Shown piece by piece: positions 29,075 to 61,202 of a stretch of 64,000 nucleotides of DNA (its first letter is position 1; each line of letters opens with the position of its first letter). Both the position numbers and the translations under genes were made by a program. This DNA is from Deltaproteobacteria bacterium HGW-Deltaproteobacteria-13 (GTDB lineage: Bacteria > Desulfobacterota > Syntrophia > Syntrophales > Smithellaceae), in the NCBI GenBank assembly GCA_002840555.1, contig PHBJ01000005.1, positions 174,045 to 238,044 on the forward strand, in the 5' to 3' direction. The notes beneath the pieces were generated by a model. That model saw only the letters and a list, made by a program, of their open reading frames with translations, ran no database searches and had not been told where the DNA came from.

Positions 29075-29143
29075 CATTTCTCCTTTTTCCATTTTATGTA
29101 AATTATGCCAAACAATCAATTGATATTCTGAAAATCAAACCCA

Positions 29144-38134: not shown

Positions 38135-38173
38135 CTATTTTACCTCCCAAAATCCCAATTCCGGATAGAGTCG

Positions 38174-39481: not shown

Positions 39482-39613
39482 AGACACCTCCATATTTTAT
39501 GGACGAATACTAACCAATAGAATATAACTTTTCAACAACTTATTTTTTAACTTTTATTTGATGCTCAAATATATTATCATAAAATTAAAAAAAACGGCAT
39601 CGGAGATGTTTTT

Positions 39614-44804: not shown

Positions 44805-44952
44805 ACGGTCATCAACACAATATCACTCTTGTCGTATGGTTTTAATTGAAGAGTAGTGTAATTTATAGAATAAGAATAAACAATAAAAAAAGTTGCCGCC
44901 GGTTTAAAATATTTTTCTTCAGACTAATATTCAGCAGCACCGGGACATTTTT

Positions 44953-45039
44953 TCATTTACTGTGCGGATGTGATTCGGTCGTTTTCAGGTAGCCGGTAAT
45001 ATTTTTTCTGTGATTGAGTAAGATGAGCAGAAACGTCGC
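44953..45039 (-). pseudogene. Remnant of the plsY 3-prime end
   Basis: Translates ATFLLILLNHRKNITGYLKTTESHPHSK*, compared with the PlsY C-terminus ATFLLILFNHRKNILNYWKTTEPQASRK*. The flanking intergenic sequence is also duplicated. Confidence 0.75.
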
Positions 45040-45190
45040 GAGGACGCAGGACTGCGCACAAAATCGCTAGCGGAGAGTAAAAAATATCCGCAAGCCGGAG
45101 TGGAAATCATAAGAATGAAACAATGATAATTACTGCTGTTCCGTATGTGATGACATTGATATCGAGCATCCTGGTGGGTTCGGCTTGTGT

Positions 45191-46903: not shown

Positions 46904-47048
46904 GTCATCACCAATGTGATATCTCCACAGTGCTATGGTTTAAATGGAAAGCGATGTAATTTATAGAAAATAATAGGAATAAACAATAAAAAGTTTTGCC
47001 TTTTGAAATATTTTTCTTTAGGTTTATTTCGAAAAAACCATAACTTTT

Positions 47049-47639
47049 TTATTTTCGGGAGGCTTGCGGTTCAGTAGTTTTCCAGTAGTTGAGAATATTT
47101 TTTCTGTGATTAAATAAGATAAGCAGAAACGTCGCGCCGGCGCCCGCAACCGCGCTGAATTGCCAGTGAAGAATATAGGACTGTCCACAAGCAAGAACAA
47201 ACACCATAAAAAATGAAGCGACAAAAGGAATTCGGACGATACCGTAGACAATCAGCCAGATTACTGCCGAGCATGCAGCCGCTAAAGGCGCCACTGGAAT
47301 CGTAAAGCCTAAATAGTTAGCCACGCCTTTGCCGCCGCGAAATCCGTGAAAACAGGGAAAGCTGTTTCCCAAAACAAGAAAAAAGCAAGCCCAGGGAATT
47401 AAATCATCTTTTAAAAAATAAACAGCCATAAACGCGACGGATATCGCCCGGCCGATATCCAGCAAAAAGACAACGGCAGCCCATTTGATTCCCGCCTGGC
47501 GATAAACATTGGTGGTTCCCGCGTTGCCGCTGAAGCTTCGGCGCGGATCTCCCTTGCCGGTCAGTTTAAAAAAAATAACGGCAAAATTTACCGAACCGGC
47601 AAGATATGCTAAAAATAATATTAATAAAGTCGTTCCCAT
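47049..47639 (-). CDS. plsY: Glycerol-3-phosphate acyltransferase PlsY (acyl-phosphate dependent)
   Basis: GSVNFAV, SGNAGTTNV and RGGKGVAN motifs. 196 aa membrane protein. Confidence 0.9.
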   Translation of the reverse strand: MGTTLLILFLAYLAGSVNFAVIFFKLTGKGDPRRSFSGNAGTTNVYRQAGIKWAAVVFLLDIGRAISVAFMAVYFLKDDLIPWACFFLVLGNSFPCFHGFRGGKGVANYLGFTIPVAPLAAACSAVIWLIVYGIVRIPFVASFFMVFVLACGQSYILHWQFSAVAGAGATFLLILFNHRKNILNYWKTTEPQASRK

Positions 47640-47664
47640 TCACCATTCACCATTCACTATTCAC
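47637..47664. repeat. Heptamer tandem array, 4 units of (C/T)ATTCAC (GTGAAT(A/G) on the minus strand)
   Basis: Read directly. The array contains the stop codon of the dehydratase gene (TGA 47649-47647) and the ATG of plsY (47639-47637). Confidence 0.85.
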
Positions 47665-48516
47665 CCTTATCCATTCCGGCGGACACAGCCGTCCCCGCGT
47701 CACATCCTTCATTTGAATGCCGCTGATACTTTCGCATATGAGATCATCCTTATAAATCCACGCGTCAAATATCAACATCTCCTTACTCACGCTCACCGGC
47801 GCAACGTGCCCAATATATTCCTTCCCCTTTTTCGTCTTTTGATAAATTACCCTTTTTTCAAATCCGACGGGAAAGCAAACTTTACCGGCAAAGCGCTGTC
47901 CCCAGACACAGGCCGCGTGCATTGCCGCGTCCATCGGAAACGGAGAGCCGAGCAAACTTTCATCTGCTCCGTAATCCCCTCCCCGAATAAAAGCCCACGC
48001 GCCCTTTGGTGAAACAGATAAATCACCACTGATGTTTTGATAAGCCGCTCCAAAAGGAACCAGTTCATGGTAAATAGTCGCCGCGGGCACGCTGATGTAA
48101 TTTCCTTCCGGTTTATTGACGGCAAGAAAAGGGGGAGTCAATGGCTCGGCAGAATCTGCGGCCGCAAACTCCACCCGGGCATGCTCAACGGTGCGGCTGA
48201 TCGCGCCGGTCTTCGATTTTACCGAAGTTAAAAGAGACGCCGTAACACTTCCCTCACCGGACATTTCCAGGTCGACCATCACCGGCAGGCGCACGGCATC
48301 CGGCGCAATGGTTAAGAAACGTGGGAAACTTGCTCTCTTCAAAATACTTATCTCTGCCCGCGGATAATAGGTTCTAACCGCGCGAGCCATAATAATCAGC
48401 GATTCCACAGCGGGCAGAATTGCTTTACCTTCCAGATGATGATCCATTAGGTATGGATACACATCTTTAGCAATTGAGCAGCGTTTTTTCTGATTTAAAC
48501 GGGGAATGATTTCCAT
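47647..48516 (-). CDS. PKS-type (double-hotdog) dehydratase-like protein
   Basis: HxxxGxxxxP motif in HHLEGKAILP and a second DxxxH motif in PMDAAMH. Start taken at MEIIPRL (48516). Confidence 0.6.
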   Translation of the reverse strand: MEIIPRLNQKKRCSIAKDVYPYLMDHHLEGKAILPAVESLIIMARAVRTYYPRAEISILKRASFPRFLTIAPDAVRLPVMVDLEMSGEGSVTASLLTSVKSKTGAISRTVEHARVEFAAADSAEPLTPPFLAVNKPEGNYISVPAATIYHELVPFGAAYQNISGDLSVSPKGAWAFIRGGDYGADESLLGSPFPMDAAMHAACVWGQRFAGKVCFPVGFEKRVIYQKTKKGKEYIGHVAPVSVSKEMLIFDAWIYKDDLICESISGIQMKDVTRGRLCPPEWIRVNSEW

Positions 48517-48974
48517 ACTTGAACCGTTTTCGGATCCACAGCCACGGGAGTGCCCGACTGATTCAGGGCGCAATGTTTCGTGAAGCCGATACAGATGATA
48601 TGCCCCTTTTCGGCGTGCGTTATCAGGTAATCAAACTGCAAACGCACCCGCTCCAGATTTACCGGCCGCGTGTAGATATACATTACATCATCATAATATA
48701 GAGGCTGATAAAAACTTACGCCCAGATCGAAGATGGGATAAACATAGCCGCTTTCCTCGATTTCCTTGTAAGAGTATGCGATGTCGCGCATCAGAGACGT
48801 CCGGCCGAATTCAAAATAACGCAGATAATTGGAGTGATACACTACTTGTGAGCGGTCTGTGTCAACATACAGGGTCCGGTATGTTGAGCGATGCCAGACA
48901 AGACCGGTTGTCAGGTCGCGCACGTAATGTTCATCATTATTATATATCTCCGGTTTAAAAGGTTTGGGTTTCAT
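48495..48974 (-). CDS. 4HBT hotdog-fold thioesterase
   Basis: YVDTDRSQVVYHSNYLRYFEFGR pattern. Start trimmed to MKPKPF at 48974. Confidence 0.7.
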   Translation of the reverse strand: MKPKPFKPEIYNNDEHYVRDLTTGLVWHRSTYRTLYVDTDRSQVVYHSNYLRYFEFGRTSLMRDIAYSYKEIEESGYVYPIFDLGVSFYQPLYYDDVMYIYTRPVNLERVRLQFDYLITHAEKGHIICIGFTKHCALNQSGTPVAVDPKTVQVWKSFPV

Positions 48975-48976
48975 TC

Positions 48977-50242
48977 TTACACTCCTCTGAAAATAACACA
49001 GCAATTTGTTCCGCCAAAACCGAAAGCATTGGAAAGAGCGATTTCATATTTATGTTTGCGGGCTTCATTGGGGACAACATCAATATCGGATATTTCCGGA
49101 TCGGGTATATGATTGATCGTGGGCAGGATAATATCTTTCTTCATTCCTTCAATCGTCAAAGCAGCTTCGATGGCCGCGGTCGCGCCGAGGGTATGCCCCA
49201 GCTGCGATTTGTTCGAGGACACGGGAATTTTTTCTATTTTTCTGCCGAACACTTCCCGAAGACATTTGACTTCCGCGCTGTCGCCTTTCGGCGTGGAAGT
49301 GCCGTGGGCATTGACATATTGAATATCTTCCGGTTTCAATCCGGCATCCTCAATCGTTTCCCTCATAGCGCGGATGATCGTCGGCATATTGGGGCTGGTA
49401 TAATGATGGGCATCCGATGACCACCCGACACCGAGAACTTCGGCCCTGGGTTTTAGTCCGTAAGCTTTCATCGTCTCTTCCGCCGCCAGAATAACAACAC
49501 CCGCGCCTTCGGAAAGAACAAACCCCTTGCGGTCAACACTGAAAGGCCGTGATGCCAGCGCCGGATTATCATAAGCGCGGTCTTTGGGATTAACCTTGAT
49601 CGTGGCGTTCATGTTGGCAAAACCGTGAATAATCTCCGGCAGGATGGGCGTGTCGACGCCGCCCGCCAGAACAAAATCGCAATCACCGTCCCGGATCATC
49701 CTTGCCCCGATGCCGATCGCGTAGTTGCCCGAAGCGCAGGCGCCCTGCGGCGAAAAGATCGGTCCGGTATATTTCAACAGCATTCCCGCCTTGCCGGAGG
49801 GAAGATTCGCGCATAAATTAGGCAGAAGATAAGGGCTGACCCGGAGCGCCCCGCGGTGTTCCAGATCGTGCACGGCGATGCGAAAAGCATCGGCCCCGTT
49901 GATTGCCGAACCGATAAGACAGGCCATTCGCGGAGCGATTTGAGCGTCAAGGACAATGCCTGAATTCTGCAGCGCCTCCTTGCAGACCGCCATCGTCAAA
50001 ATAACAAAAGCCGCGTTCCAGTTATAAACTTCCTTCGCGTCGGTAAAATCAAGCTCCAGCGGGTACCAGTCGGGTATCTCCCCGACGATATCGCAAGCGG
50101 ATTCCACTTTACAGCGGGTTACCTTGCGAAACCCGGCCTCGCCCTTAATCGCTCGCCTCCACGTTTTTTCAAACGTGCTTCCCAGGGGAGTGGCCGCGCC
50201 GTAACCGACAACAAAAACTTTTCTGTTTTTCGGAGCTTTCAT
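48977..50242 (-). CDS. Beta-ketoacyl-ACP synthase (FabF/FabB-like), KS-1
   Basis: Cys-His-His triad: GACASG, VNAHGTSTP, GHTLGATA. Confidence 0.85.
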   Translation of the reverse strand: MKAPKNRKVFVVGYGAATPLGSTFEKTWRRAIKGEAGFRKVTRCKVESACDIVGEIPDWYPLELDFTDAKEVYNWNAAFVILTMAVCKEALQNSGIVLDAQIAPRMACLIGSAINGADAFRIAVHDLEHRGALRVSPYLLPNLCANLPSGKAGMLLKYTGPIFSPQGACASGNYAIGIGARMIRDGDCDFVLAGGVDTPILPEIIHGFANMNATIKVNPKDRAYDNPALASRPFSVDRKGFVLSEGAGVVILAAEETMKAYGLKPRAEVLGVGWSSDAHHYTSPNMPTIIRAMRETIEDAGLKPEDIQYVNAHGTSTPKGDSAEVKCLREVFGRKIEKIPVSSNKSQLGHTLGATAAIEAALTIEGMKKDIILPTINHIPDPEISDIDVVPNEARKHKYEIALSNAFGFGGTNCCVIFRGV

Positions 50243-50256
50243 ATTTTACCTTTTTA

Positions 50257-50329
50257 TGTCATTTCGAGCGTAGCGAGAAATCTTTTCTCTAAGATTGCCA
50301 CGCCAACCAAGGGTTGGCTCGCAATGACA
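50257..50329. repeat. Palindromic intergenic element (TGTCATTTCGAG ... CTCGCAATGACA), copy 1
   Basis: The outer inverted repeat encloses AATCTT/AAGATT and GCCAACC-AAG-GGTTGGC hairpins. Homologous to 52701-52783. Confidence 0.75.
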
Positions 50330-50334
50330 TTTAT

Positions 50335-51597
50335 TTACTCAGTTCTGCGCAAAACGAGGCAGGAATTGCATCCGCCGAAGCCAAACGCGTTTTTCAGCAC
50401 AAACTCCTGTTTTACAATTCTTGCGCCCTCGGCAACACAGTCAATTTCAATTTCCCTGTCAGGGATATAATTAATAGTGGGCAGCAATGTGTCTTTAAGC
50501 ATCCCTTCCATAGCCAGGATGGCTTCGATAGCGCTGGACGCGCCCATCGCGTGGCCAAGTTGCGATTTATTCGCCGATACCGGAGGCATTTTAGAACCGA
50601 AGATGTTACGCAAAGCATCGGCTTCCACTTTATCGCCAATTTTTGTCGAGGTCGCGTGCGCGTTTACCGCGTCAACGTCTTCGGGATGTAATCCACTATT
50701 GGCAATGGTTTCCTTGATGCATCTTTGCACCGTTGTCAAATTAGGCGAAACAAAATGACTGGCGTCGGAGGTCATGGACCATCCGCTCATTTCTATCTTT
50801 GATTTGAGCCCATGGGCTTTCGCAAATTCGTCGGTTGCCAGAATAACGCAGCCGGCGCCTTCGGAAACGACAAAGCCGCGCCGGTTCGCGGAAAAAGGCC
50901 GGCTCGTTTTTTCCGGAGGTTCTTCCATCTGTCCTTCTTTCGGACGGTACGCGCCGTTCATCGTGGCAAATCCGGCAACAATCGGCTCCACCAGAGGAAA
51001 ATCCACAGCGCCGCCGATCACGACGTCCGCCATATTTCTCTGCAGCAGCATCTCACCGACAATCAGCGAAGTAATTCCGGTAGCGCAAGCCGTAATGGTC
51101 GAGCTGATCGGTCCTGTCGCTCCCGTAAGAATGGAAACCTTGCCGCCGACCATATTAATGCAGGAATTGGGATTGGTAAAAGGATGGGGCATTTTGCCTT
51201 CAGCGATCATCAGTCGATCAGCCTGCAGAACCGCGTCCAGTCCGCCGACCGCTGAACTAAAGGTAACCGCCACCCGCGGCGCAATTTCCTTCGTAATAAC
51301 AATTCCACTTTTTAACAGGGCCCGATGAACAACCAGCAGGGCGTATTTAAAGATAGGAGAGGTCCAGTGCGCCAAATCTCGAGGCTGTAAAAAAGGATAC
51401 TGACGAGTATCCACCTCGGCCACTTCACCGGCGACACGCACCGGGAAGCCTTCAGTTAATGGAAATCTGGTCAACTTCCCTATTCCGCAATTTCCGGCGA
51501 CAGCCCGCTGCCATTGAGTATCCAGATCCGTCCCCAAAGAAGATACGGCATCGTAACCCAATATTAATGTTTTCTTTGAACCCATTACCACCTTCAT
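50335..51597 (-). CDS. Beta-ketoacyl-ACP synthase, KS-2
   Basis: Cys-His-His triad: TACATG, VNAHATSTK, GHAMGASS. Confidence 0.85.
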   Translation of the reverse strand: MKVVMGSKKTLILGYDAVSSLGTDLDTQWQRAVAGNCGIGKLTRFPLTEGFPVRVAGEVAEVDTRQYPFLQPRDLAHWTSPIFKYALLVVHRALLKSGIVITKEIAPRVAVTFSSAVGGLDAVLQADRLMIAEGKMPHPFTNPNSCINMVGGKVSILTGATGPISSTITACATGITSLIVGEMLLQRNMADVVIGGAVDFPLVEPIVAGFATMNGAYRPKEGQMEEPPEKTSRPFSANRRGFVVSEGAGCVILATDEFAKAHGLKSKIEMSGWSMTSDASHFVSPNLTTVQRCIKETIANSGLHPEDVDAVNAHATSTKIGDKVEADALRNIFGSKMPPVSANKSQLGHAMGASSAIEAILAMEGMLKDTLLPTINYIPDREIEIDCVAEGARIVKQEFVLKNAFGFGGCNSCLVLRRTE

Positions 51598-51683
51598 AAA
51601 AGAGATAAAAAAGCTTCTCCTGCTAAAAAGAGCAAGCGGGTTACGTTGATTCCCAAAATGCCTATATCAAAAATTGTCGGGGA

Positions 51684-52682
51684 TTACCAAGGAATAAAGT
51701 GGTACAACTTTGCAAACATTTCATAGACTTCGATCCAGTTTTGTAAATCTTTGGCCGATTTCATGTGTTCGCGTTTGTTGACCATGACCCAGCTCATATG
51801 CGCCGCGCCATCTTTGCAGGTGGAACAGTCGCGTGTTGCCGAAGTGCAACAGCGATGAACCGTTTTTAAATCGGAAGCCCAGCGGGAAAAATGAATTAAA
51901 CGGCGGGGACGATTTGTTCGATGATCAAGCGACTCCGTAACCGACGGGCATTCGTTCCAGCCAAAGTCCCGTCCCATCATTTTCCCCGTGGTAATCACTT
52001 CGTGATAGTATTTGCAGGAAATTACAGTTTGCGGATAATGATCGAGCATTTCGTCCATCTCCTGGCGCAAATCTTTCAGTTCGCCCTCGCGCCACGAAAA
52101 GCCGTCAACACGTTCATCATTCGATAAAAGCTGCAGATGTACTTTTAAGCCGACGTCGGCAATTCTTTTAATGACCGGTTCAATCTTGCCCACCTGACGG
52201 GGCGTTAAGGTAAAAAGATAATAAGTGTAAGCGTCTCCTTCATAATTCTTACTGGAAATGGCAAAAGTGTCACGCCCGCGAAGGATTTTCTCATCTTCTC
52301 CGCCGCCCCAGAGGGAAATTCCCACCATCATATCGGGGAATTTTTCCCGGGGAACCTTGATCAGACCGTTGGTGGCGCAATAGGTGGGCAGGCGCTTATA
52401 AAAAGCTTCAACGCGATCCATGCAGAGCGTGGGCTCCCCGCCGATCAAAATCGCCAGATTCACTCCCCGTTCTTTTTCACGGTCAATGAAATCTTCCCAC
52501 TTTTTTATGTCCATTTCCTCTTCGGCCGCCTGATGTTCTCCCGAAGAAAAGAAAAAACAGCCTTTGCAGCGCAAATTGCACCGGTTGGTTACATCATATA
52601 TGGAACTGCGGATATTAAGTGTTGAGATTCGTCTGTATCTCTCATGCCAGTCTTTATCCAGCAAAGAACTAACTGTTTTCAT
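51684..52682 (-). CDS. Radical SAM protein, HpnH-like architecture (rSAM-1)
   Basis: CNLRCKGC (CxxxCxxC), GGEPTL, CATNG, and a C-terminal Cys-rich tail CCTSATRDCSTC that resembles the HpnH C-terminal extension. Confidence 0.65.
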   Translation of the reverse strand: MKTVSSLLDKDWHERYRRISTLNIRSSIYDVTNRCNLRCKGCFFFSSGEHQAAEEEMDIKKWEDFIDREKERGVNLAILIGGEPTLCMDRVEAFYKRLPTYCATNGLIKVPREKFPDMMVGISLWGGGEDEKILRGRDTFAISSKNYEGDAYTYYLFTLTPRQVGKIEPVIKRIADVGLKVHLQLLSNDERVDGFSWREGELKDLRQEMDEMLDHYPQTVISCKYYHEVITTGKMMGRDFGWNECPSVTESLDHRTNRPRRLIHFSRWASDLKTVHRCCTSATRDCSTCKDGAAHMSWVMVNKREHMKSAKDLQNWIEVYEMFAKLYHFIPW

Positions 52683-52700
52683 TCATACTACCCTTAATTA

Positions 52701-52783
52701 TGTCATTTCGATCCGGCGTTTGCCGGGGAGAAATCTTTTCTTCAAGATTGCCACGCCCCGACAAGTCGGGGTTTGCAATGACA
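52701..52783. repeat. Palindromic intergenic element, copy 2
   Basis: tatgtcatttcga ... gagaaatcttttcttcaagattgccacgcc ... CCCCGAC-AA-GTCGGGG ... tgcaatgaca. The internal hairpin differs in sequence from copy 1 but still pairs. Confidence 0.75.
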
Positions 52784-52791
52784 TTCTTTTT

Positions 52792-53892
52792 TTACGATAG
52801 CGCCGCTTGCGGCGGTTCTATAGTTGCAGCGCAAAGATTTTCGCCCTTCTCATAACCCATCACCCAGACAGCCAGATAGGTGTCCACATAATCCAGCCAG
52901 GATTTAAAAGTATCAAGATTGCCCGCATGACGGTATAGCCGCGCCGTGACCACCGCTGAACCGGCGGCGTAATGACGGCAATCGCGACAATCCGTGTCCG
53001 GCACACAGCAGGCAACCGATCGGTCCCAGTTAAGATCCGTTCTGTATTGCCTGAAAGACCTTCCCAACCCGATATCCTGTGAAGGATTCTGACGGGGATA
53101 TGAACAGCCGTAAAGGTCATGCAAACCTTTTTGATGCGTATGCGCCACGGCGTTGTAAGCCGAAAAGAGAATGTTGCGCGGATATATATTCAAAAGCTCT
53201 ATCATCATCTGCCGTGTCCGGCTGAGAGATTCATCATCATGCCGCAGATTCCCCGTGTAACCGACCGGCGAGGAAAAGACGTTAAACGTTAATTTACACC
53301 CGTGGGCGACAAGCCGGGCGGCAACTTCTTTCACCTCATCTATATTTTCCCGCGTGAAGGTGTAAACAAAAACAGCGCGCGGATCATTTTCGTAATTCTC
53401 AATCTGTTTTTTCAAAAGATCTTTGGCCTTTCTGATTCTCAGGCTGGTTTCATCATTGCCCCAGACGGAAATATGCAGTTTATAGCCAACGGATGAAGAA
53501 ATTTTTTTAAACCCGTTGGTGGCAATACTGCCAAGCGGCATTTCCAGATAGCACGCATCCAGCAGCTGGGGCACTAAAGAAGGCTCCGCTCCCGCCAGAA
53601 CCACGTAAGTAATGCCGCGCGCTTTTTCCGCCCGCATCAGCTCGCGCCACGCCGCCGCGTCGCCAATCTCCCGGGCAAACTGTTTTTCGCCTTCAAAATA
53701 ATAACAGCCGTCGCATCGAATATTGCAGCGATTGGACATGTCGTAAGTTGATTCCCGCAGAAAAAAATATTTCCTCACCTTTTCCCAACGTGCTTTGACT
53801 TCCGGATGGGCTAAAAGTTCGGAAAATTTCGGCTTGGCTGATTCCTGAGTTACTTTATTATGAACAGGCATAGACCTATTTGCTTCTATCAA
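52792..53892 (-). CDS. Radical SAM protein, HpnH-like architecture (rSAM-2)
   Basis: CNIRCDGC, AGAEPSL, ATNG, and a C-terminal CCVPDTDCRDCRHY. Paralog of rSAM-1. Confidence 0.65.
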   Translation of the reverse strand: MIEANRSMPVHNKVTQESAKPKFSELLAHPEVKARWEKVRKYFFLRESTYDMSNRCNIRCDGCYYFEGEKQFAREIGDAAAWRELMRAEKARGITYVVLAGAEPSLVPQLLDACYLEMPLGSIATNGFKKISSSVGYKLHISVWGNDETSLRIRKAKDLLKKQIENYENDPRAVFVYTFTRENIDEVKEVAARLVAHGCKLTFNVFSSPVGYTGNLRHDDESLSRTRQMMIELLNIYPRNILFSAYNAVAHTHQKGLHDLYGCSYPRQNPSQDIGLGRSFRQYRTDLNWDRSVACCVPDTDCRDCRHYAAGSAVVTARLYRHAGNLDTFKSWLDYVDTYLAVWVMGYEKGENLCAATIEPPQAALS

Positions 53893-54165
53893 TTAATTTT
53901 TCGTGGCAATCTTTTCTTCAATATATTCGGCAATCAGACGAATCGTTTTCAACCTGGGATAATCGTCTTCATCAATGGCGATCCTGTATTCATCCTGCAG
54001 GACTAAGGCAATCGTTGCCAGATCCATGCTGTCAATGCCCAGTTCATCCACCAGATCCATATCCGGATTGAATGTATCCGCTGTAACCTCTTCCAGTTTA
54101 AGCTCATCAATAATGATTTCGGCCACGTGCCGTATAATGCCTTCGATATCGTGATTTACAGGCAT
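53893..54165 (-). CDS. Acyl carrier protein (ACP-1)
   Basis: LGIDSMDL phosphopantetheine-attachment motif. Start trimmed to MPVNHD after GGAGG. Confidence 0.8.
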   Translation of the reverse strand: MPVNHDIEGIIRHVAEIIIDELKLEEVTADTFNPDMDLVDELGIDSMDLATIALVLQDEYRIAIDEDDYPRLKTIRLIAEYIEEKIATKN

Positions 54166-54189
54166 CCCTTCCCTCCTTACCATGCTTAT

Positions 54190-54573
54190 TTATATTTTTT
54201 TATCACTTATTTTTTTTGCAATCATCAAACCACTGCACACAATATTTTCTTTTCTTATCACTTTAAACGAAAACAAAATATCTCCGCCTGCTTCTTCACC
54301 TGTTACGATTACCGAAAGTGTTTCTCCCGGCCTCACCGGTTGAGTGAATCTTACTCTTCTGAGCGACTGCAATTGAACGCACGTCCCTTTTGCCTGTGCG
54401 TCCCGGATAATTGCCTGTTCGACTATATTAACCAAAGCGATTCCCGGAAGAATCGGCTCACCCGGGAAATGACCTGAAAACCAGGGGGAATCAGCCGGCG
54501 CATCCGCTAAAGCTTCAATATGATTATTATTAATTGCCTTTATTTCTTTTAACAAACTCCATTGATTTTCCAA
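54190..54573 (-). CDS. FabZ-like hotdog dehydratase
   Basis: FSGHFPGEPILPGIAL motif. Apparent TTG start. Confidence 0.7.
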   Translation of the reverse strand: MENQWSLLKEIKAINNNHIEALADAPADSPWFSGHFPGEPILPGIALVNIVEQAIIRDAQAKGTCVQLQSLRRVRFTQPVRPGETLSVIVTGEEAGGDILFSFKVIRKENIVCSGLMIAKKISDKKI

Positions 54574-54786
54574 TAAACAGACCCCATTACCCCATCACAG
54601 CGTTAACTTCACGCCCAAAAGAGGTAATTCATATCATCGATTGTTTTTTCAATCAAAATTTTTTTATAACGTCAATAAAAATAATTAAACTCAAATTTTA
54701 GAAGTTAACACTTTTTTGTGAAAGGATCAGGATATCCCTTGTTTGATCGATAATATTTCTATTCATACAGAATCTACAGGGTGTTC

Positions 54787-56280
54787 TTAATTATTCTTTG
54801 CCGGATCATGGAACTCATTCAAACCGGCCAGGTATTTCATATCCGTCCGGTAACGTTCTTCCCATCCTTGTTTTGCCTGTCTGCGGCCGACAGTAAGCTT
54901 CAGCAAAGGGCGCAGCACATATGTCCAAAACGGCACCCACAGGCCTCCCTTGCTTCTGAACAGTTTGGAAGGCTCCCACCACCCGAAAATCTTCTGCCTG
55001 TGCAGCCAGACCAGATATTGCAATTGCTCCGTCTCGAGATGCCGGGTTTTAACATTGGCGCTGATGCCGTTGTATCTCTTGTAATCGTACGGATTGGTCA
55101 CCATTCCCTGATCCAGCAGTTGCTGACGCACCTCCGTCTTCGGATAGGGAGTCAGAATCTGGCAGTAGGGTATATCCGCGTCCAGCGCTTTCATAAACTT
55201 ATAGTTTTCAATAATATCCGCTTCGTCATCGTCCGGAAAACCGAAAATCAATCCGGCAATGACCATAATGCCGTATTTGTGGCATATCTGAACAGCTTTG
55301 CGCGATGCCTCCACGATATCGCCTTTGTGCGATACAACCAAGTTTTTCCGGGATACACTTTCAATCCCTAAAAAAATGGTTTTCATTCCCGCGAGAGACA
55401 TTTTACGCACCATCTCTTCGTTTCTGGATATGGAAACACAATCGGCCTGGACGTTGAGTTTCAGTCCCTTGTAATTGCGGGCGATGATCGCGTCACAAAT
55501 ATGAATGACCCGTTGGGGATCAAGCACCAGGTTGTCATCGACAATAAAAATCATGCGGGTCTTAAGGTTGTAATAAATGTCATCGATATCCGCCAAAACC
55601 CTTTCAATGGGGAACGTCCGAAAGGTCGGTCCATACATATGGTTCATGCTGCAAAAAGAACAGGTTCTGGTGCATCCCCGGGATGTCTCCATGACCTCAG
55701 CTTTCGAAGTTACGATATGATATCCTGACGTCAGGCGGCGTTTATCCCGGATGGGGATTTTAAGCCGGGAGAGATCCAGCAGTTCTCCTCTGGGATTGTG
55801 GACAAACTGCCCCCCGTCTTTATAAGACAGAGAAGGAATGTCTTCCAGCCGGTCCTTGTCCTCCAGCGCGTTTACCAGCCTCCGGAAGGATTCTTCGCCT
55901 TCTCCCCGGACCATGAAGTCGATCAGGCCGGCCTCGCTAGACGAGGCAATTTGTTCATACATCAGTGTGGCATGATATCCACCGATGACAATTTTTACTT
56001 CCGGCACAAGGCGCCGGATAAAACGGATTATTTTGATACAGGTCTCATACTGCCATGTCATGGCGGATAAACCAACCAGTTGTGGACGGATTTTAAGCAG
56101 GAGTCGTCTCAAATATCCGGTAAGATGCCTGCGTTTACGAATAAGATCGACAATAAAAATATCATGGCCGGCATCGATGTTGGCGCCTAAACTGGCAATT
56201 CCGCAATTGGATAAATGAAAGGCGCTTGCGTGCATAATCATCGGAATCACGTCCGGCATGGACATCAGAATAATTTTCAT
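54787..56280 (-). CDS. B12-binding-domain radical SAM protein (class B), B12-rSAM-1
   Basis: N-terminal Rossmann-like cobalamin-binding-type domain, then CTRTCSFC. 497 aa. Confidence 0.75.
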   Translation of the reverse strand: MKIILMSMPDVIPMIMHASAFHLSNCGIASLGANIDAGHDIFIVDLIRKRRHLTGYLRRLLLKIRPQLVGLSAMTWQYETCIKIIRFIRRLVPEVKIVIGGYHATLMYEQIASSSEAGLIDFMVRGEGEESFRRLVNALEDKDRLEDIPSLSYKDGGQFVHNPRGELLDLSRLKIPIRDKRRLTSGYHIVTSKAEVMETSRGCTRTCSFCSMNHMYGPTFRTFPIERVLADIDDIYYNLKTRMIFIVDDNLVLDPQRVIHICDAIIARNYKGLKLNVQADCVSISRNEEMVRKMSLAGMKTIFLGIESVSRKNLVVSHKGDIVEASRKAVQICHKYGIMVIAGLIFGFPDDDEADIIENYKFMKALDADIPYCQILTPYPKTEVRQQLLDQGMVTNPYDYKRYNGISANVKTRHLETEQLQYLVWLHRQKIFGWWEPSKLFRSKGGLWVPFWTYVLRPLLKLTVGRRQAKQGWEERYRTDMKYLAGLNEFHDPAKNN

Positions 56281-56354
56281 ATTGCCCCGACTCTCTCTGT
56301 CGTCACAATTCCAAACATATCAACGATAATTCTTAGGAGGTAACCATCCTTTTT

Positions 56355-57179
56355 TTAGCCGGCAGTTGCGTCATGCCGGCATTTCACCGCCATCATTTCT
56401 CTATCAATCAAAAAAGAAAGAGGCACAATTTTAAAACCATTGCCAATAAGTCCCTGCAATATTTTTTCAATCTCCGGCAATAAAATATCGCTGTCCTCTT
56501 TTTTACGCGGCGGTATGTCATGAAGGACGATAATATCGTCGGCCTTTACCTTCTTAAGTATTTTGGAGGCTAAATGTCCAACGCGGCGATTGCCGGCATC
56601 AAAAGCGCGGCAGCTGAAAGTTACACAGAACATTCCCAATTTATCCAACACCTGCGGCAGTTTGGGGCTGATGATGCCCACCGGAGGCCGGAAGGACATG
56701 GCATTCACGCCCATCTCTTTTAAAACTTCCTGAGCCCTGAATATTTCCTGATAAAGATAATTATAATTTCCCAGCATTAAAAAAGGATTATGATGGAAAG
56801 AATGATTGCCGATCGTGTGGCCGCGGGCGATTATTTCTTTGATTATTTCCGGATGCTTCAGTGCGTTTACGCCGGAAACAAAAAAAGTCGCTTTGACTGA
56901 ATACTTATCCAGCAAAGCCAGTATTTGTCCCGTTGTCGGCTCCGCCGGGCCATCGTCAAAAGTGAGCGCGACCAGATTTTGTCCGGTATGGCCGTGACTG
57001 ATCACAGGGAGGTAAAAATTGCTCTGCGGGAAAAAAGAGGCCGCGACACAGAGGATAATATAAAAAAAGGCAATGGCCGCAGCCAGCAGTGAGTTCATAA
57101 AAAAAACAACCGCGGCTGAAGATAAAAGAATTATTCCTGTGATTTGAGCGGGACTGGCAGACAAAAATTTGTTTTTCAT
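56355..57179 (-). CDS. NodB-type polysaccharide deacetylase family protein with an N-terminal membrane anchor
   Basis: TFDDGP and GNHSFHH motifs. Two N-terminal hydrophobic helices. Confidence 0.8.
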   Translation of the reverse strand: MKNKFLSASPAQITGIILLSSAAVVFFMNSLLAAAIAFFYIILCVAASFFPQSNFYLPVISHGHTGQNLVALTFDDGPAEPTTGQILALLDKYSVKATFFVSGVNALKHPEIIKEIIARGHTIGNHSFHHNPFLMLGNYNYLYQEIFRAQEVLKEMGVNAMSFRPPVGIISPKLPQVLDKLGMFCVTFSCRAFDAGNRRVGHLASKILKKVKADDIIVLHDIPPRKKEDSDILLPEIEKILQGLIGNGFKIVPLSFLIDREMMAVKCRHDATAG

Positions 57180-57390
57180 TGATCATTCCTTGAAAAACAT
57201 AGTACGGGTTTTTCAACTCGTCAAAGCTCAGCTAAAACCACACACTACATTATTATTTTTTCCGCTTCCCTATGCGAGCGGAGAAACAAAGGAAATCCCG
57301 ATGTTCTACCCTTCCTCGATCCCTCCCCTCAAACGCGGGAAGAAATACATGGATTCCCGCCAAAATCACGCGGGAATGACAGCGGAGTTT

Positions 57391-58743
57391 TTATTGAATC
57401 AGGTACTCCCACAAAGGACCCGTAAAACCGCGTCTGTAGAGCTTGGGCAAAATGCGTGTCGCCTTGGCTTCACCCGCGCCGATAATCCAGTTCAGACGGC
57501 CGTTGGCGTGATTTTCCACCGTCTGCATAATTTCCTGAGCGGTTATTTCCGGCGAACGGTAAAAGACGGGCGACAGGATATTTTGTTCCGCGGTAATTTG
57601 ACCCTCGCGCAGGGCGACATCATATAAAGCCGTGTGCGGGTATACGCGGACGCCGCAAAAAAAGAAGAAAACGGCCTTTTCGAGATTATCGATTCCGGCC
57701 AATGTTTTTTGCAGAGTCTCTTTGTTTTCGCCGGGCCCGCCCAGTAAAAAATAATGGGCAACATGCAATCCGGCGGCGAGCGCTTCCTGATGAGCGGCAA
57801 AAACATCGGCCCGAGCAAAAGGCTTGCGTAAGCTGGCCAGCACCTTTTCCGATAAAGACTCCGTGCCGAATTCCACATGCGTCAGTCCGGCATCCTTCAT
57901 CAGTTTAAAATAATCGGCCGGTGGAACAGTGGGAGCAAAAAAACCTCCCCATGGAATGGATACGCCCGCTCTTATAAACGCCTCCGCGACCTGCTTGCTG
58001 TGATCATAACTGGCGTTGAAGGCGGAATCGGTTATAAAAATATATTTGGCGCCCGCGTCCTGCAATTCCCGGGCGCTTTTGGCCACTTCACGCGGCGGGA
58101 AAAACCGCATCCGGCTGCCTTCAATGTGAGGATAAGTGCAGTAACTGCAATGAAAAGGGCAACCCCGTTTTGTTTGCAGGTTGAGCATGCCGCCGTAGGA
58201 CAGATAAAATCGGGCGTGAGTGCTTTCCGGATCGAAACGCCTGTTCATCGCGCCGTCATACGGTTCATAAACGACAGCCGTTTTTTCTTTTGTCAGGACG
58301 CCGGGGATCTGTTTCACATCCTCTTTTTTCTCCAGCGCATCAAGCAGCAGTGAAAATCTCTCGCCTTCGCCGGCAATGCCATAATCGGCATCCAGCGCCT
58401 GCATGAACTCAACGGGAAAAATAGTAAAACCGCTGCCGCCCAGAATTATCCGGGCCTTTGAATTCGTCCTTATCTGGCGGATCAAATTCTGATATTCGGG
58501 CAGGAATCCTTTGCAGTTTATTACATCGGTGTTATCAATATTCCTGATGGATACGCCGGCAAAATCGGGAGAAAACTCCCGGATCATCGCCTCCAGGCCC
58601 TCCGGATAGGTAAAATCGTTTAAATCCACAATTTTAGTCTGATAACGGGAATCCAGGGAACCGGCAACATAGTCCAACCCCAGCGGATATACCGGATAGG
58701 GAATTCTCAGAGTATTTGCCGAAATGAGCAGAACTTTCATCAT
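57391..58743 (-). CDS. B12-binding-domain radical SAM protein (class B), B12-rSAM-2
   Basis: MKVLLISANT...PLGLDYVAG N-terminal domain, then CPFHCSYC. Start trimmed to the ATG pair at 58743/58740. Confidence 0.75.
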   Translation of the reverse strand: MMKVLLISANTLRIPYPVYPLGLDYVAGSLDSRYQTKIVDLNDFTYPEGLEAMIREFSPDFAGVSIRNIDNTDVINCKGFLPEYQNLIRQIRTNSKARIILGGSGFTIFPVEFMQALDADYGIAGEGERFSLLLDALEKKEDVKQIPGVLTKEKTAVVYEPYDGAMNRRFDPESTHARFYLSYGGMLNLQTKRGCPFHCSYCTYPHIEGSRMRFFPPREVAKSARELQDAGAKYIFITDSAFNASYDHSKQVAEAFIRAGVSIPWGGFFAPTVPPADYFKLMKDAGLTHVEFGTESLSEKVLASLRKPFARADVFAAHQEALAAGLHVAHYFLLGGPGENKETLQKTLAGIDNLEKAVFFFFCGVRVYPHTALYDVALREGQITAEQNILSPVFYRSPEITAQEIMQTVENHANGRLNWIIGAGEAKATRILPKLYRRGFTGPLWEYLIQ

Positions 58744-58797
58744 AGGAATAACAACGCGCAAAATGCTTACAGGTCATGGTTTCGCGCAAGCTGAAAA

Positions 58798-59067
58798 TTA
58801 ACCTTTTTTCTGATTCTTGGCAATGTGAGCAGCCAGCGCGCGCACGGAAGCGAAAACTTTTACGCCCAGTTCCTTGCTTTCGATTTTAACGCCATAGTCT
58901 TTCTCAATCATCATCACCAGTTCCAGCACATCAATGGAATCAATCCCCATATCGCCGCCGACAAGTTGCGCATCATCCTTAATATCTTCGGGTCCAACGT
59001 CAATCAGCCCCAGTGTTTGAATAATTTTAACCTTAAGTTCACCAACCAGTTCTTCAATGTCACTCAT
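58798..59067 (-). CDS. Acyl carrier protein (ACP-2)
   Basis: MGIDSIDVLEL attachment motif. 89 aa. Confidence 0.8.
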   Translation of the reverse strand: MSDIEELVGELKVKIIQTLGLIDVGPEDIKDDAQLVGGDMGIDSIDVLELVMMIEKDYGVKIESKELGVKVFASVRALAAHIAKNQKKG

Positions 59068-59121
59068 TTAATACTCCTGCTCTTATATCAAAATTTCACT
59101 TTCATTTTTTGTATGAATTTT

Positions 59122-59511
59122 CTAATATTCCATTTGGTTTGCCGTAATTTTTTCAACGTCTTTCCCTAGAATTTTTTCCAGCACAATTCTCGCTAACCAT
59201 TTCCCAAGCGTTCTCGCGTAGTCGGCGCCAGTCAGGTACATTCCCAGTATCAGAAGCAACCAGGAAAAACCATAAGAAACCGGAATTCCAATAACACCAA
59301 TCAACGGTTTCTTCAACTTCACGGCGATTAATCCTATTACAAAAAATGCCGGCACGACAAAAAAAACACTTAAAATAATTAAGATAAGACCGATGATGAC
59401 CGGCAAAGTATTCTTTTCTTTTATAATGCTTAAATCAGTCTTCTCGATTATAGCGGTCCTGCAAAATTCTTTTCGGGCAAAATAAAACGCCGCTTTTTTT
59501 ATTATATTCAA
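59122..59511 (-). CDS. Small membrane protein, unknown function
   Basis: Two to three hydrophobic helices. I recognise no motif. Confidence 0.5.
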   Translation of the reverse strand: MNIIKKAAFYFARKEFCRTAIIEKTDLSIIKEKNTLPVIIGLILIILSVFFVVPAFFVIGLIAVKLKKPLIGVIGIPVSYGFSWLLLILGMYLTGADYARTLGKWLARIVLEKILGKDVEKITANQMEY

Positions 59512-59587
59512 AATATTTCCTTAAAAAAAATAAGTTAAATATTTTTCAAACGGAAATTTCGGACAAAAAAATTGATAATCGGCTTCG

Positions 59588-60178
59588 TTACCTTTCCATG
59601 ATTCCGCCGACGGAATGTTTGGAACGAAGCGGGTAATCTTTGTAGGCAATATCTTTAAAAACGCCCGTTCGCGCCTGACCGACGGTAGCAATCAATTCAT
59701 TATCAATATATATGCGCCCGTCACCAATGACTATGCTCGCGCCTGATTCCTTTAACTGCGAATAACGTCGCACATCAATTTCAAAACGGACACATTTGTT
59801 AAACGGACGAATCTGACCGTTAAAAGCGACCTCGCCGCATCCCAGCGCCCTGCCCGTCCCCAGCGAACCTTTCCAGACGCAGAAAAAACCAAGCAGTTGC
59901 CAGATCGCGTCCACGCCCAGACATCCGGGCTGTACCGGATCGCCGTGAAAGTGGCATTGAAAATACCAGGCGTCCAGCCTTATATCCTGTTCGGCAATTA
60001 TTTTACCCTTCTTCCCGTCGCTTTCAATCAATAATATGCGATCCACCATAAGAAAGGGAGGCGCAGGAAGTTTCGCGTCAAAATGTTCAGGAGGATCACC
60101 AATCAGCCTTCCGTAAGAAAAAGCGAGAAGTTCTTCGAAACTAAAATGATCACGTTTTAAAAATTCCTGATACTTCAT
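59588..60178 (-). CDS. fabA: 3-hydroxyacyl-ACP dehydratase / trans-2-cis-3 isomerase, FabA-type
   Basis: LPAPPFLMVDRI, WYFQCHFHGDPVQPGCLGVDAIWQL and GRALGCGEVAFNGQ align closely with my recollection of E. coli FabA. Confidence 0.85.
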   Translation of the reverse strand: MKYQEFLKRDHFSFEELLAFSYGRLIGDPPEHFDAKLPAPPFLMVDRILLIESDGKKGKIIAEQDIRLDAWYFQCHFHGDPVQPGCLGVDAIWQLLGFFCVWKGSLGTGRALGCGEVAFNGQIRPFNKCVRFEIDVRRYSQLKESGASIVIGDGRIYIDNELIATVGQARTGVFKDIAYKDYPLRSKHSVGGIMER

Positions 60179-60515: not shown

Positions 60516-61202
60516 ATGAACAGAGCCGCTCTTCATAAAATCAGTTACGGTCTATATATCGTCACATCCGGGCAAGACGGTAAATTCAACGGTCAGATTG
60601 CCAACTCCATGTTTCAGGTTACATCAAATCCGGCAACCGTGGCCATCAGCATAAATAAAGAAAATTACACTCATGAACTCATTAAACTCAGCCGTAAATT
60701 TGTCGTCTCGATTCTGTCCGAAGCGGCGCCCATGACTTTCATCGGCCTTTTCGGCTTTAAAAGCGGGCGCGATGTCGATAAACTGAAAAACGTAAAAACA
60801 AAAACTGCGGTAACCGGCGTGCCCATCGTCCTGGAAAATACGGTCTCCTATATGGAAGTGGAAATGGAAAAAGAATTAGATTGCGGCACGCATACTATCT
60901 TCGTCGGCAACATTGTCGATTGCGACGTTGTGAACGACGCCGAACCTATGACTTACGCCTATTATCAAAACGTCAAAGGGGGCAAATCATCGAAAAACGC
61001 TCCTACTTATGTAAAAGATGAACCTTCCGCCGCTCCGCACAGCGCAGCCAGTTACGTTTGCAGCGTTTGCGGTTATGTTTATGATCCGGATAAAGGTGAT
61101 CCGGATAACGGCGTCGCTCCGGGAACAAAATTTGAAGATTTGCCGGAGACCTGGACATGTCCTGTCTGCGGCGCTGATAAATCGAAGTTTGAAAAAGAAT
61201 AG
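60516..61202 (+). CDS. Flavin reductase-like domain fused to a C-terminal rubredoxin (high-molecular-weight rubredoxin type)
   Basis: N-terminal flavin-reductase-like fold. C-terminal [10 protein letters not shown]...[10 protein letters not shown]. Confidence 0.8.

Follow-up and report, generated by a model that had tools for sequence, protein, structure and literature searches.

The stretch of DNA analysed here (the window) comprises 64,000 nucleotides from Deltaproteobacteria bacterium HGW-Deltaproteobacteria-13, a member of the Smithellaceae (contig PHBJ01000005.1, positions 174,045 to 238,044). Between positions 47049 and 60178 it carries 15 intact, co-directional open reading frames (ORFs) on the minus strand, which run from fabA to plsY and combine parts of type II fatty acid synthesis (FASII) with four radical S-adenosylmethionine (SAM) enzymes. 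The gene order given by an earlier, sequence-only reading of this DNA is borne out by the ORF listing and by Pfam and NCBIfam profile searches of the window ORFs with curated cutoffs, on which all domain calls are based. The cluster belongs to a kind known since 2009; what is new here is the fabA front end and an extra B12-binding radical SAM enzyme. The site where the deacetylase gene meets the FabZ-like gene varies between loci, and the cluster is best read as two modules, or sub-operons, A (60178-56355) and B (54573-47049). In the order fabA to plsY, followed by the two genes downstream, the features are:

59588-60178, minus: fabA, 3-hydroxyacyl-acyl carrier protein (ACP) dehydratase/isomerase; first gene of module A in Smithellaceae
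59122-59511, minus: TM129, a 129-aa membrane protein of no family; residues 29-91 hydrophobic
58798-59067, minus: ACP2, dedicated acyl carrier protein of module A (PF00550, 41.8 bits)
57391-58761, minus: class B (B12-binding) radical SAM enzyme of family TIGR04072, with B12-binding and Radical_SAM Pfam domains
56355-57179, minus: membrane-anchored NodB-type metallohydrolase of the polysaccharide deacetylase family (PF01522, 102 bits); last gene of module A
54787-56280, minus: second class B radical SAM enzyme, BchE/HpnR-like, without family assignment; between modules A and B
54190-54573, minus: small hotdog dehydratase, FabZ/ApeI-like (PF07977, 36 bits); first gene of module B
53893-54183, minus: ACP1, dedicated acyl carrier protein of module B (PF00550, 38.7 bits)
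52792-53892, minus: rSAM_A, twitch/SPASM-like radical SAM enzyme with clustered cysteines at its C-terminus; the core's signature gene
51684-52682, minus: rSAM_B, paralogous radical SAM enzyme that always adjoins rSAM_A (PF04055, 32 bits)
50335-51597, minus: KS2, FabF-like ketosynthase (KS; PF00109/PF02801)
48977-50242, minus: KS1, FabF-like ketosynthase, 43% identical to KS2
48495-49004, minus: TE, YbgC/FadM-type 4HBT hotdog thioesterase (PF13279, 50 bits)
47647-48573, minus: PS-DH, double-hotdog dehydratase of the polyketide synthase (PKS) type (PF14765, 29.2 bits)
47049-47639, minus: PlsY-family acyltransferase of a cluster-specific subfamily (PF02660, 126.6 bits); last gene of module B
45191-46903 and 43101-44804, minus: two paralogous membrane proteins of 570 and 567 aa, 49% identical, downstream of plsY

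Successive genes from fabA to plsY are separated by 76, 54, 36, 211, 74, 213, 6, 0, 109, 86, 92, -28, -79 and 7 nt. Alignment and direct reading of the sequence show intact catalytic motifs in all genes checked, including the CxxxCxxC motif of all four radical SAM enzymes and the serine of the DS motif in both carrier proteins. The cluster holds no fabH, fabD, fabG, fabI, plsX or fabB equivalog and no regulator, exporter or resistance gene, and a Pfam search finds in it no ketoreductase (KR), LolA, MMPL, LPLAT or GT2/GT4 domain. An Rfam scan detects no cobalamin or other riboswitch in the cluster. Promoter and terminator scans of the cluster stay at background level, except for one promoter-like site (54722-54695, a 10/12 match) in the 213-nt gap upstream of module B, which is weak evidence.

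Conservation and modular variants across related loci

A profile scan with rSAM_A over one genome per GTDB species returns at least 570 confirmed hits. The best 80 loci (70-89% identity) were compared, and all window proteins were searched against the fetched loci (numbered with an L below) by tblastn, with counts given as loci with a homolog over loci long enough to show one. These 80 loci come from Smithellaceae and other Syntrophales, Desulfobacteraceae, Desulfonema, Desulfatitalea, Spirochaetota/Leptospirales and one "Gammaproteobacteria" metagenome-assembled genome (MAG). The closest core radical SAM homologs among those listed are 79-88% identical and belong to Smithella/Smithellaceae, as do the closest genome loci. 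The core is rigid and keeps its order: the FabZ-like dehydratase (67/76), ACP1 (76/77), rSAM_A (79/79), rSAM_B (71/71), KS2 (61/63), KS1 (56/58), the thioesterase (48/51), PS-DH (44/50) and PlsY (33/49). The front module is variable, and its genes are found less regularly (deacetylase, or PDA, 53/67; TIGR04072 radical SAM 47/63; ACP2 49/61; TM129 35/58; fabA 23/57). The arrangement exceeds chance by far, the core order being repeated in 44-76 fetched loci from several phyla.

Upstream of the TIGR04072 gene, fabA alone is found in 21 loci, a fused ketosynthase/chain-length-factor (KS/CLF) gene alone in 10 and both in none; as the two never occur together, they seem to be alternative routes by which one enzyme is supplied. 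In the more distant loci (L052, L053, L057, L063, L064, L066, L067, L068, L074, L078 and L080), the upstream module consists of ACP2, a fusion of about 727 aa, with or without a flavoprotein, the TIGR04072 radical SAM enzyme and the deacetylase. The fusion is made up of a complete KS followed by a Ketoacyl-synt_2 domain. Its N-terminal half has chain B of PDB entry 9s5h as its best PDB match (193 bits) and its C-terminal half chain C of the same entry (33 bits), which has a Val at the position of the FabF catalytic Cys; the C-terminal half of the fusion likewise lacks this Cys. The entry is probably the amxFabF2/amxFabFmut heterodimer of anammox bacteria, since it holds two chains and the same Val that has been published for Kuste3606 (PMC2649909, Table 2), and on these sequence grounds the fusion is likely to be a KS/CLF. 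The flavoprotein, a 493-aa amine-oxidase/phytoene-desaturase-like protein, is optional and occurs in L052, L053, L057, L068 and L080; no such ORF exists between 43 and 64 kb of the window. The window thus represents a Smithellaceae variant with fabA in place of KS/CLF plus desaturase, and among the compared loci the linkage of fabA is confined to this family. Stretches of the KS/CLF type (L057:2446-6107, L052:2641-8157, L063:3942-7747, L074:4092-7610 and L078:5703-9169) are found in Desulfonema, Syntrophales, Leptospirales/Spirochaetota and Desulfobacteraceae MAGs.

Further parts come and go between loci. A PlsC-type acyltransferase or an MMPL protein is an additional component in some relatives, and methyltransferase, PDH-like and MMPL-methyltransferase genes occur in L063, L057 and L013. 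The deacetylase is fused to a SAM methyltransferase domain in L063 and L074, and AmxMT1 (8HD2) is not found among the matches of this domain from L063. In a Thermodesulfobacteriota subgroup (L013:249-3398, L015:5049-8231, L016), ACP1 is preceded neither by a FabZ-like gene nor by a TIGR04072 module, and a divergent deacetylase and a fusion of an MMPL protein with a SAM methyltransferase, about 1050 aa long, stand in this position; downstream of PS-DH, the same subgroup carries an extra KS, an ACP, a different B12-binding radical SAM enzyme and a FabZ-like gene.

The second B12-binding radical SAM gene of the window is an accessory gene, and the sequence-only picture of one uniform 15-gene unit gives way to two modules with this gene between them. 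An ortholog is found in 2/71 loci (L052/L053, 58% identity), where it is placed elsewhere, between the PlsC-type acyltransferase and PS-DH. In the closest relatives, L001-L003, which are 79-86% identical to the window at the nucleotide level over the rest of the cluster, this site is taken up by unrelated DNA of about 1.25 kb, whose opposite strand encodes an HNH-like ORF. The protein has B12-binding (62 bits) and Radical_SAM (60 bits) Pfam domains, all its NCBIfam matches are under cutoff (best BchE, 181 versus 481), and HpnJ and HpnR models are among the NCBIfam matches of the B12 radical SAM proteins. Small ORFs of the homing endonuclease type are seen at variable junctions of related clusters, one HNH-like (L003:8190-8540, minus), exactly where the window carries the extra gene, and one GIY-YIG (PF01541; L052:13496-13813).

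Enzymes of the two modules

The most conserved genes of the cluster are rSAM_A and rSAM_B, paralogues that are 28% identical to each other and 70-95% identical between phyla (rSAM_A 70-89% over 79 loci, rSAM_B 71-95% in 71/71), which indicates strong constraint or horizontal transfer. In rSAM_A, for which public gene calls place the start at 53871, the motif CNIRCDGC is accompanied by the invariant C-terminal cysteines C295, C302 and C305, plus C263; rSAM_B carries CNLRCKGC and a C-terminal CC...DCSTC. This C-terminal pattern fits the presence of one auxiliary cluster. The AlphaFold2 (AF2) model of rSAM_A (pLDDT 88.5) finds SuiB, viperin, anSME and BlsE as its best fold neighbours in the PDB by Foldseek, at TM-scores of about 0.5, and SkfB is its best PDB match by sequence profile. 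These are generic SPASM/twitch radical SAM enzymes, and no HpnH model is among the NCBIfam matches of either protein at E <= 1e-3, so that the "HpnH-like" assignment made from the sequence alone is not supported.

In twitch/SPASM enzymes such as BtrN, anSME and the sactisynthases, the auxiliary cluster usually oxidises a substrate radical, resulting in dehydrogenation or a new C-C or C-S bond. Because of this role, the pair is predicted to perform an oxygen-independent desaturation, ring closure or coupling on an ACP-bound chain. That the substrate would be ACP-bound is supported by the position of ACP1, which lies directly upstream of rSAM_A in 76/77 loci (at 0-21 nt in the window, depending on the start chosen), and by a 40%-identical relative of rSAM_A in a polysaccharide/sulfotransferase context outside fatty acid synthesis, whose gene likewise overlaps, and is translationally coupled to, that of an ACP.

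Distant relatives of rSAM_A (30-45% identity; L083:10001-11255, L081, L082) stand in sulfotransferase, glycosyltransferase or O-antigen-like neighbourhoods, and their hosts include the aerobes Pseudomonas asplenii and Cyanobacterium aponinum. In L083, the radical SAM gene overlaps a PP-binding carrier gene by 8 nt. Given such contexts, these relatives are uninformative as to the function of the clade linked to fatty acid synthesis, apart from the ACP coupling of the 40% relative.

Module B as a whole is read as a self-contained system for building the chain. The small dehydratase keeps the catalytic His, has Asn at the acid position and a Glu three residues further on, and scores 25.2 bits against the Pfam ApeI-like model, under the cutoff of 28.5. 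Its best PDB match is 3esi (47 bits), with 6qsr_A at 34 bits and the amxFabZ entries at about 32 bits; it is no nearer to amxFabZ than to other FabZ or ApeI proteins. All acpP models score ACP1 under cutoff (TIGR00517, 33.7 versus 70.45). Both ketosynthases keep the Cys-His-His-Lys residues and fall under the cutoff of the fabF equivalog TIGR03150 (493.75), with 324 bits for KS2 and 380 bits for KS1. The best PDB matches of KS1 are canonical FabF proteins, and both enzymes are nearer to canonical FabF than to 9s5h. Proteins identical to KS1 are present on metagenome contigs. The thioesterase exceeds the cutoff of its subfamily model (TIGR00051, 73.3 versus 68.7 bits) and in public gene calls starts at 48974, straight after the KS1 stop. 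In PS-DH, for which the same calls give a start at 48516, the motifs HxxxGxxxxP and DxxxH are legible in the sequence. The window protein is unfused and no phosphopantetheinyl transferase (PPTase) is encoded within the cluster; several relatives have a PS-DH that continues into a fused 4'-phosphopantetheinyl transferase (ACPS) domain (L078:15129-16628, L053:19198-20733, L063:15271-16800, L073:17397-18905 and L086:8974-10515), which ties it to the carrier system.

The PlsY-family protein can be aligned from end to end to Aquifex PlsY (5xj5) and scores 111.8 bits against the equivalog TIGR00023, under the cutoff of 137.2. A comparison of the window with L003, L052, L060, L063, L067, L073, L075, L037 and L039 shows that all cluster-linked PlsY proteins, from Smithellaceae to Leptospirales, share the changes of LGH to GN or GT and of FLKG to GRA, and a new His in PCFHGF. 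The His of the LGH motif presumably lines the substrate pocket in the Aquifex structure. The cluster PlsY is read as a dedicated paralogue whose donor or acceptor may differ from that of the canonical enzyme. In L037, PlsY is part of a 632-aa fusion on the opposite strand.

In module A, FabA keeps the catalytic residues His70 and Asp84 and is recognised by PF07977 (134 bits) and NF003509 (203 bits versus a cutoff of 124); TIGR01749 scores 168 bits, under its cutoff of 238. TM129, for which Pfam and NCBIfam searches give no match, adjoins ACP2 in 35/58 loci with 34-63% identity. ACP2 has the motif GIDS and lies 36 nt upstream of the TIGR04072 gene; its nearest NCBIfam model is NF006617 (69.6 bits, cutoff 70), and it falls under the cutoff of the acpP equivalog (TIGR00517, 38 versus 70.45 bits). 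The TIGR04072 enzyme covers model positions 1-443 of 443 with 401.4 bits against a cutoff of 360. NCBIfam names this family rSAM_ladder_B12, "lipid biosynthesis B12-binding/radical SAM protein". The true start of the gene is probably near 58737, because the alignment to the model opens at residue 9. The deacetylase shows the motifs TFDDG, HSFHH (HSxxH), RPP and LHD, and a hydrophobic segment at its N-terminus (residues 8-53).

The two membrane proteins downstream of plsY had been described as GT-C-like and as following the cluster; the fold is borne out, and the genes are not conserved with the cluster. They belong to a very small orphan family with 74 homologs among 5.8 billion proteins, all annotated as "hypothetical", and have no Pfam match. 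The AF2 model (pLDDT 86.6) matches only glycosyltransferases of the GT-C fold (STT3/OST, ArnT, PglB, AglB, AftA, Pmt4 and DPY19, TM-scores 0.40-0.48), and an acidic D-x-D/E-Y motif (SDTDNDY/NVDPEY) is conserved in the first loop after the first transmembrane segment. A homolog is found in 0/46 related loci long enough to show one, indicating that the pair is a lineage-specific insertion which splits an otherwise conserved plsY-pfkB junction. The GC content of one of the genes (TM570a) is 0.357, versus 0.471 for the window. Between the two genes lies a 131-nt copy of the 3' end of plsY (44949-45079 versus 47045-47175, 71% identity), overlapped by a 71-aa ORF (44985-45200), and a second repeat pair joins 44382-44633 with 46481-46732. 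The copied plsY tail and the repeat spacing of about 2.1 kb indicate that a unit of plsY tail plus GT-C-like gene was tandemly duplicated and has since diverged.

The flanks are unrelated to the cluster and comprise a pfkB kinase, an amidohydrolase, rubrerythrin and cytochrome bd oxidase on one side, and a flavin reductase-rubredoxin, an Fe-S protein and a TetR regulator on the other. Cytochrome bd oxidase subunits I and II, the rubrerythrin-like protein and the flavin reductase-rubredoxin fusion (37124-40174 and 60516-61202) probably serve in oxygen defence of a presumed strict anaerobe. A thiamine pyrophosphate (TPP) riboswitch (RF00059, 29184-29283, minus, 59.3 bits versus a gathering threshold of 54.3) upstream of a 282-aa ORF (28271-29119) is likewise unrelated to the cluster.

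Relation to described ladderane-type clusters

The cluster had been put forward as a previously undescribed system, and this does not stand. Rattray et al. described in 2009 large FASII clusters of Kuenenia that hold the radical SAM genes Kuste3343/3342, the polysaccharide-deacetylase-like Kuste3351, several FabF paralogues, ACPs, FabZ and phytoene-desaturase-like genes, noted a "striking" synteny with Desulfotalea psychrophila (DP1853/DP1855) and found similar clusters in Geobacter and Pelobacter (PMC2649909), and thus already in Deltaproteobacteria. The family has a curated NCBIfam model and at least 570 hits of its core radical SAM enzyme, and "ladderane" biosynthetic gene clusters (BGCs) of unknown function, classed as secondary-metabolite BGCs, have been mined from Desulfobacterota and many other phyla (PMC9902471). 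The gene kinds of kuste3335-3352, kuste3603-3608 and Desulfotalea DP1853/DP1855 match those found here (PMC2649909, PMC4790861). The full gene list of kuste3335-3352 includes ordinary FASII genes, and heterologous expression yielded no product (PMC4790861).

Like the Kuenenia kuste3335-3352 and Desulfotalea clusters, the window has, as far as architecture goes, an adjacent pair of radical SAM genes without B12 domain, several FabF paralogues, ACPs, a FabZ-type dehydratase and a deacetylase-like gene, and it shares the Deltaproteobacterial occurrence. The likeness of Kuste3351 to the deacetylase at 56355-57179 is at the domain level only (PF01522), and rSAM_A and rSAM_B, adjacent between ACP1 and the KS pair, were compared with Kuste3343/3342 and DP1855/DP1853 by architecture and description. 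The window lacks the phytoene-desaturase-like, SAM methyltransferase, acyl-CoA-ligase-like, MMPL-like, FabG and glycosyltransferase genes of clusters of this type and, unlike kuste3335-3352, has fabA and a PlsY end; fabA was reported absent from Kuenenia (PMC2649909).

The candidate ladderane clusters, which had been named in the sequence-only reading as the closest relatives, are supported as such by the TIGR04072 score over cutoff and by the related loci with a KS/CLF fusion, a PDH-like gene and a TIGR04072 radical SAM enzyme. In anammox bacteria, Cluster I (kuste3603-3608) is the leading candidate for ladderane synthesis and comprises amxACP, amxFabZ, amxFabF2, amxFabFmut, PDH and a B12-radical SAM enzyme (PMC10139942; bioRxiv 10.64898/2026.05.19.726425). 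Both Cluster I and the window have a dedicated ACP next to a B12-radical SAM enzyme of the TIGR04072 family, and the related non-anammox loci share with Cluster I the KS/CLF pair, fused in these loci, and the PDH-like flavoprotein, in the same order. The 2026 preprint terms the Cluster I parts list unique to ladderane producers; judged by sequence, this parts list occurs in non-anammox anaerobes, directly upstream of the core. In the window itself, the KS/CLF heterodimer and PDH are absent, fabA is found in their place, the host is not an anammox bacterium, and both ketosynthases are active and belong to module B, unlike the Cluster I KS/CLF with its dead-triad FabF. The chemistry of ladderane-type clusters is still called unknown in a 2026 review and in the 2026 preprint, and no paper was found that assigns a characterised product to any of the clusters outside anammox bacteria.

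Proposed pathway and its alternatives

Taken together, the gene content, the intact active sites, the family membership of the B12 enzyme, the linkage and the modular variation support the carrier-based acyl-chain pathway with radical SAM tailoring that had been proposed from the sequence alone. It is rather probable, if well short of certain, that the cluster makes a dedicated carrier-bound acyl chain, which is tailored by radical SAM enzymes and loaded on a glycerolipid by the specialised PlsY, and that it is the Smithellaceae version of a ladderane-type extended FASII. As to which substrates are used, in what sequence the steps follow, which reactions the four radical SAM enzymes catalyse and in what lipid the chain ends up, we infer the following scheme. 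In module A, an unsaturated acyl-ACP2 would be made via FabA (elsewhere via KS/CLF plus desaturase) and would be alkylated or rearranged by the TIGR04072 class B enzyme, yielding a modified precursor. The commonest chemistry of class B enzymes is methylation, and ring-forming members exist. In module B, the chain would be extended and dehydrated on ACP1 by KS1, KS2 and the two dehydratases and remodelled on this carrier by the soluble rSAM_A/rSAM_B pair; the thioesterase would edit or release it, and the PlsY paralogue would put the finished acyl group on the glycerol phosphate backbone. Malonyl transfer, ketoreduction and enoyl reduction (FabD, FabG, FabI/K) would be supplied by housekeeping FASII. 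The product is expected to be an acyl chain of unusual structure in membrane glycerolipids, which may be branched, cyclised, cross-linked or anaerobically desaturated, and not a ladderane.

Several points weigh against this proposal. No lipid product linked to the genes of any organism that carries such a cluster was found in the literature. The cluster has no ketoreductase, enoyl reductase or malonyl transferase, and the use of housekeeping FASII is assumed. The normal donor of PlsY is acyl-phosphate, and neither PlsX nor a fatty-acid kinase is encoded in the cluster. With the LGH motif of the cluster PlsY having lost its His, the substrates of this protein may differ; and of the 49 loci that extend far enough, 16 have no PlsY gene. 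The thioesterase might also set the chain free as an acid, so that no lipid is fed. The proposed orthology of rSAM_A and rSAM_B with Kuste3343/3342 rests on matching architecture and the literature, and the sulfotransferase and glycosyltransferase contexts of the relatives at 30-45% identity show that the chemistry of the family at large extends beyond fatty acids.

Among the alternatives, the one that survives best, though it is itself unlikely, is a secondary lipid akin to an aryl polyene (APE) or a polyunsaturated fatty acid (PUFA). In such a system, a dissociated type II PKS would make a polyunsaturated chain through iterative use of KS, FabG and the dehydratases, without enoyl reduction, the chain would be lipid-anchored, and the radical SAM enzymes would trim or cyclise the polyene; the product might act as a pigment, an antioxidant, or a cold- or redox-adaptive lipid. 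APE clusters of Gram-negative bacteria have reportedly been described by Cimermancic (2014) and Grammbitter (2019), and their set of a paired KS, a 4HBT thioesterase, a second dehydratase and a dedicated ACP, reported in the second work, is mirrored by the window. The two kinds of cluster are alike in their discrete proteins, paired KS-family genes, an ApeI-like plus a second dehydratase, ACPs, a 4HBT thioesterase and a lipid-anchoring acyltransferase. The small dehydratase best matches ApeI-like proteins in the searches given above, PDB entries 6qsp/6qsr and 3esi turn up among the matches of the window proteins, and the combination of FabA-type and PS-DH-type dehydratases and the PPTase fusions recall PUFA synthases. 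In contrast to APE clusters, the window has two catalytically complete KS and not a KS/CLF, PlsY and not an LPLAT, and no dedicated ketoreductase, aryl-starter or LolA/MMPL export genes; APE clusters have no counterpart to its four radical SAM enzymes, and the ApeI-like score is under the Pfam cutoff. PUFA (Pfa) synthases are multidomain PfaA/PfaC megasynthases with tandem ACPs, whereas all cluster proteins are discrete, and scores against the PfaA model are 29-65 bits, with a cutoff of 1010. Bacterial polyunsaturated hydrocarbons elsewhere are known as products of a Pfa synthase plus OleABCD, which counts against this alternative. In its favour, Rattray et al. found C31:8 and C31:9 hydrocarbons in Desulfotalea and suggested a route to PUFAs that works anaerobically (PMC2649909).

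A housekeeping role, in which FabA and FabB/FabF form an anaerobic unsaturated-fatty-acid pathway, PlsY serves phospholipid synthesis and the radical SAM enzymes are minor tailoring enzymes or passengers, has somewhat poorer prospects still. The canonical FabA/FabB and PlsX/PlsY route resembles the window in a FabA with its His and Asp, in FabF-like synthases and in a PlsY-fold acyltransferase as the last gene. FabA exceeds its equivalog cutoff (NF003509), both KS have intact triads with canonical FabF as the best PDB matches, and ordinary FASII genes are also part of kuste3335-3352 (PMC4790861). Against this stand KS1, KS2, both ACPs and PlsY, which fall under the FabF, AcpP and PlsY equivalog cutoffs, the altered motifs of the PlsY subfamily (LGH to GN in the window) and the missing plsX, fabB equivalog, fabH, fabD, fabG and fabI. 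The fabA linkage, in 23/57 loci, is a matter of Smithellaceae only, the KS pair is always bound to the radical SAM pair, and genes as conserved as rSAM_A and rSAM_B do not fit the role of passengers.

A small molecule other than a lipid is doubtful as well. Here, the thioesterase would free an acid of medium chain length, modified by the pathway, which would serve as a signal, an antibiotic or the precursor of a cofactor, with PlsY as a mere neighbour. The YbgC/FadM-type thioesterase, over its subfamily cutoff and present in 48/51 loci, the occurrence of PlsY in just 33/49 loci and the classing of such clusters as secondary-metabolite BGCs by genome mining (PMC9902471) are consistent with this, whereas the position of plsY 7 nt after PS-DH, the maintenance of its cluster-specific subfamily across phyla, the PlsC-type acyltransferase and MMPL genes added in relatives and the lack of a regulator, exporter or resistance gene argue for a lipid. 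True ladderane synthesis outside anammox bacteria is the least likely reading and hardly credible, as the full-length TIGR04072 membership of the B12-radical SAM enzyme is set against a Smithella-type syntroph as host, a window without the KS/CLF pair and desaturase of Cluster I, the lack of ladderanes in Desulfotalea despite its homologous clusters (PMC2649909) and reports of ladderanes from anammox bacteria only (PMC13459092).

Beyond the preferred reading of a tailored acyl chain destined for a glycerolipid, a more far-reaching version can be offered only tentatively. The core of ACP1, rSAM_A, rSAM_B and two KS genes might encode the first radical SAM enzymes to remodel a growing acyl-ACP without oxygen, through desaturation, ring closure or C-C coupling by means of a twitch auxiliary cluster; fabA and KS/CLF plus desaturase might be interchangeable suppliers of the unsaturated substrate of the TIGR04072 enzyme; and the Smithella cluster might be a reduced relative of the ladderane pathway outside anammox bacteria, with a new class of membrane lipid in syntrophic and sulfate-reducing anaerobes as its product.

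For about 20 years, the biosynthesis of ladderanes has resisted explanation, as anammox bacteria are genetically intractable and the candidate enzymes express poorly. The occurrence of the same enzyme families, including TIGR04072, in many non-anammox anaerobes offers more tractable source organisms, and the mix-and-match variants (fabA or KS/CLF plus desaturase, with or without extra B12 enzymes, methyltransferases and PlsC) provide a comparative handle on the role of each part. A specialist is unlikely to be surprised by the cluster; its modular variants make the question of the ladderane-type pathway more testable in non-anammox hosts. For the organisms themselves, the findings imply a conserved, probably abundant lipid modification in Syntrophales, Desulfobacterales and some Spirochaetota, which is of relevance to lipid biomarkers from peat, sediments and digesters.

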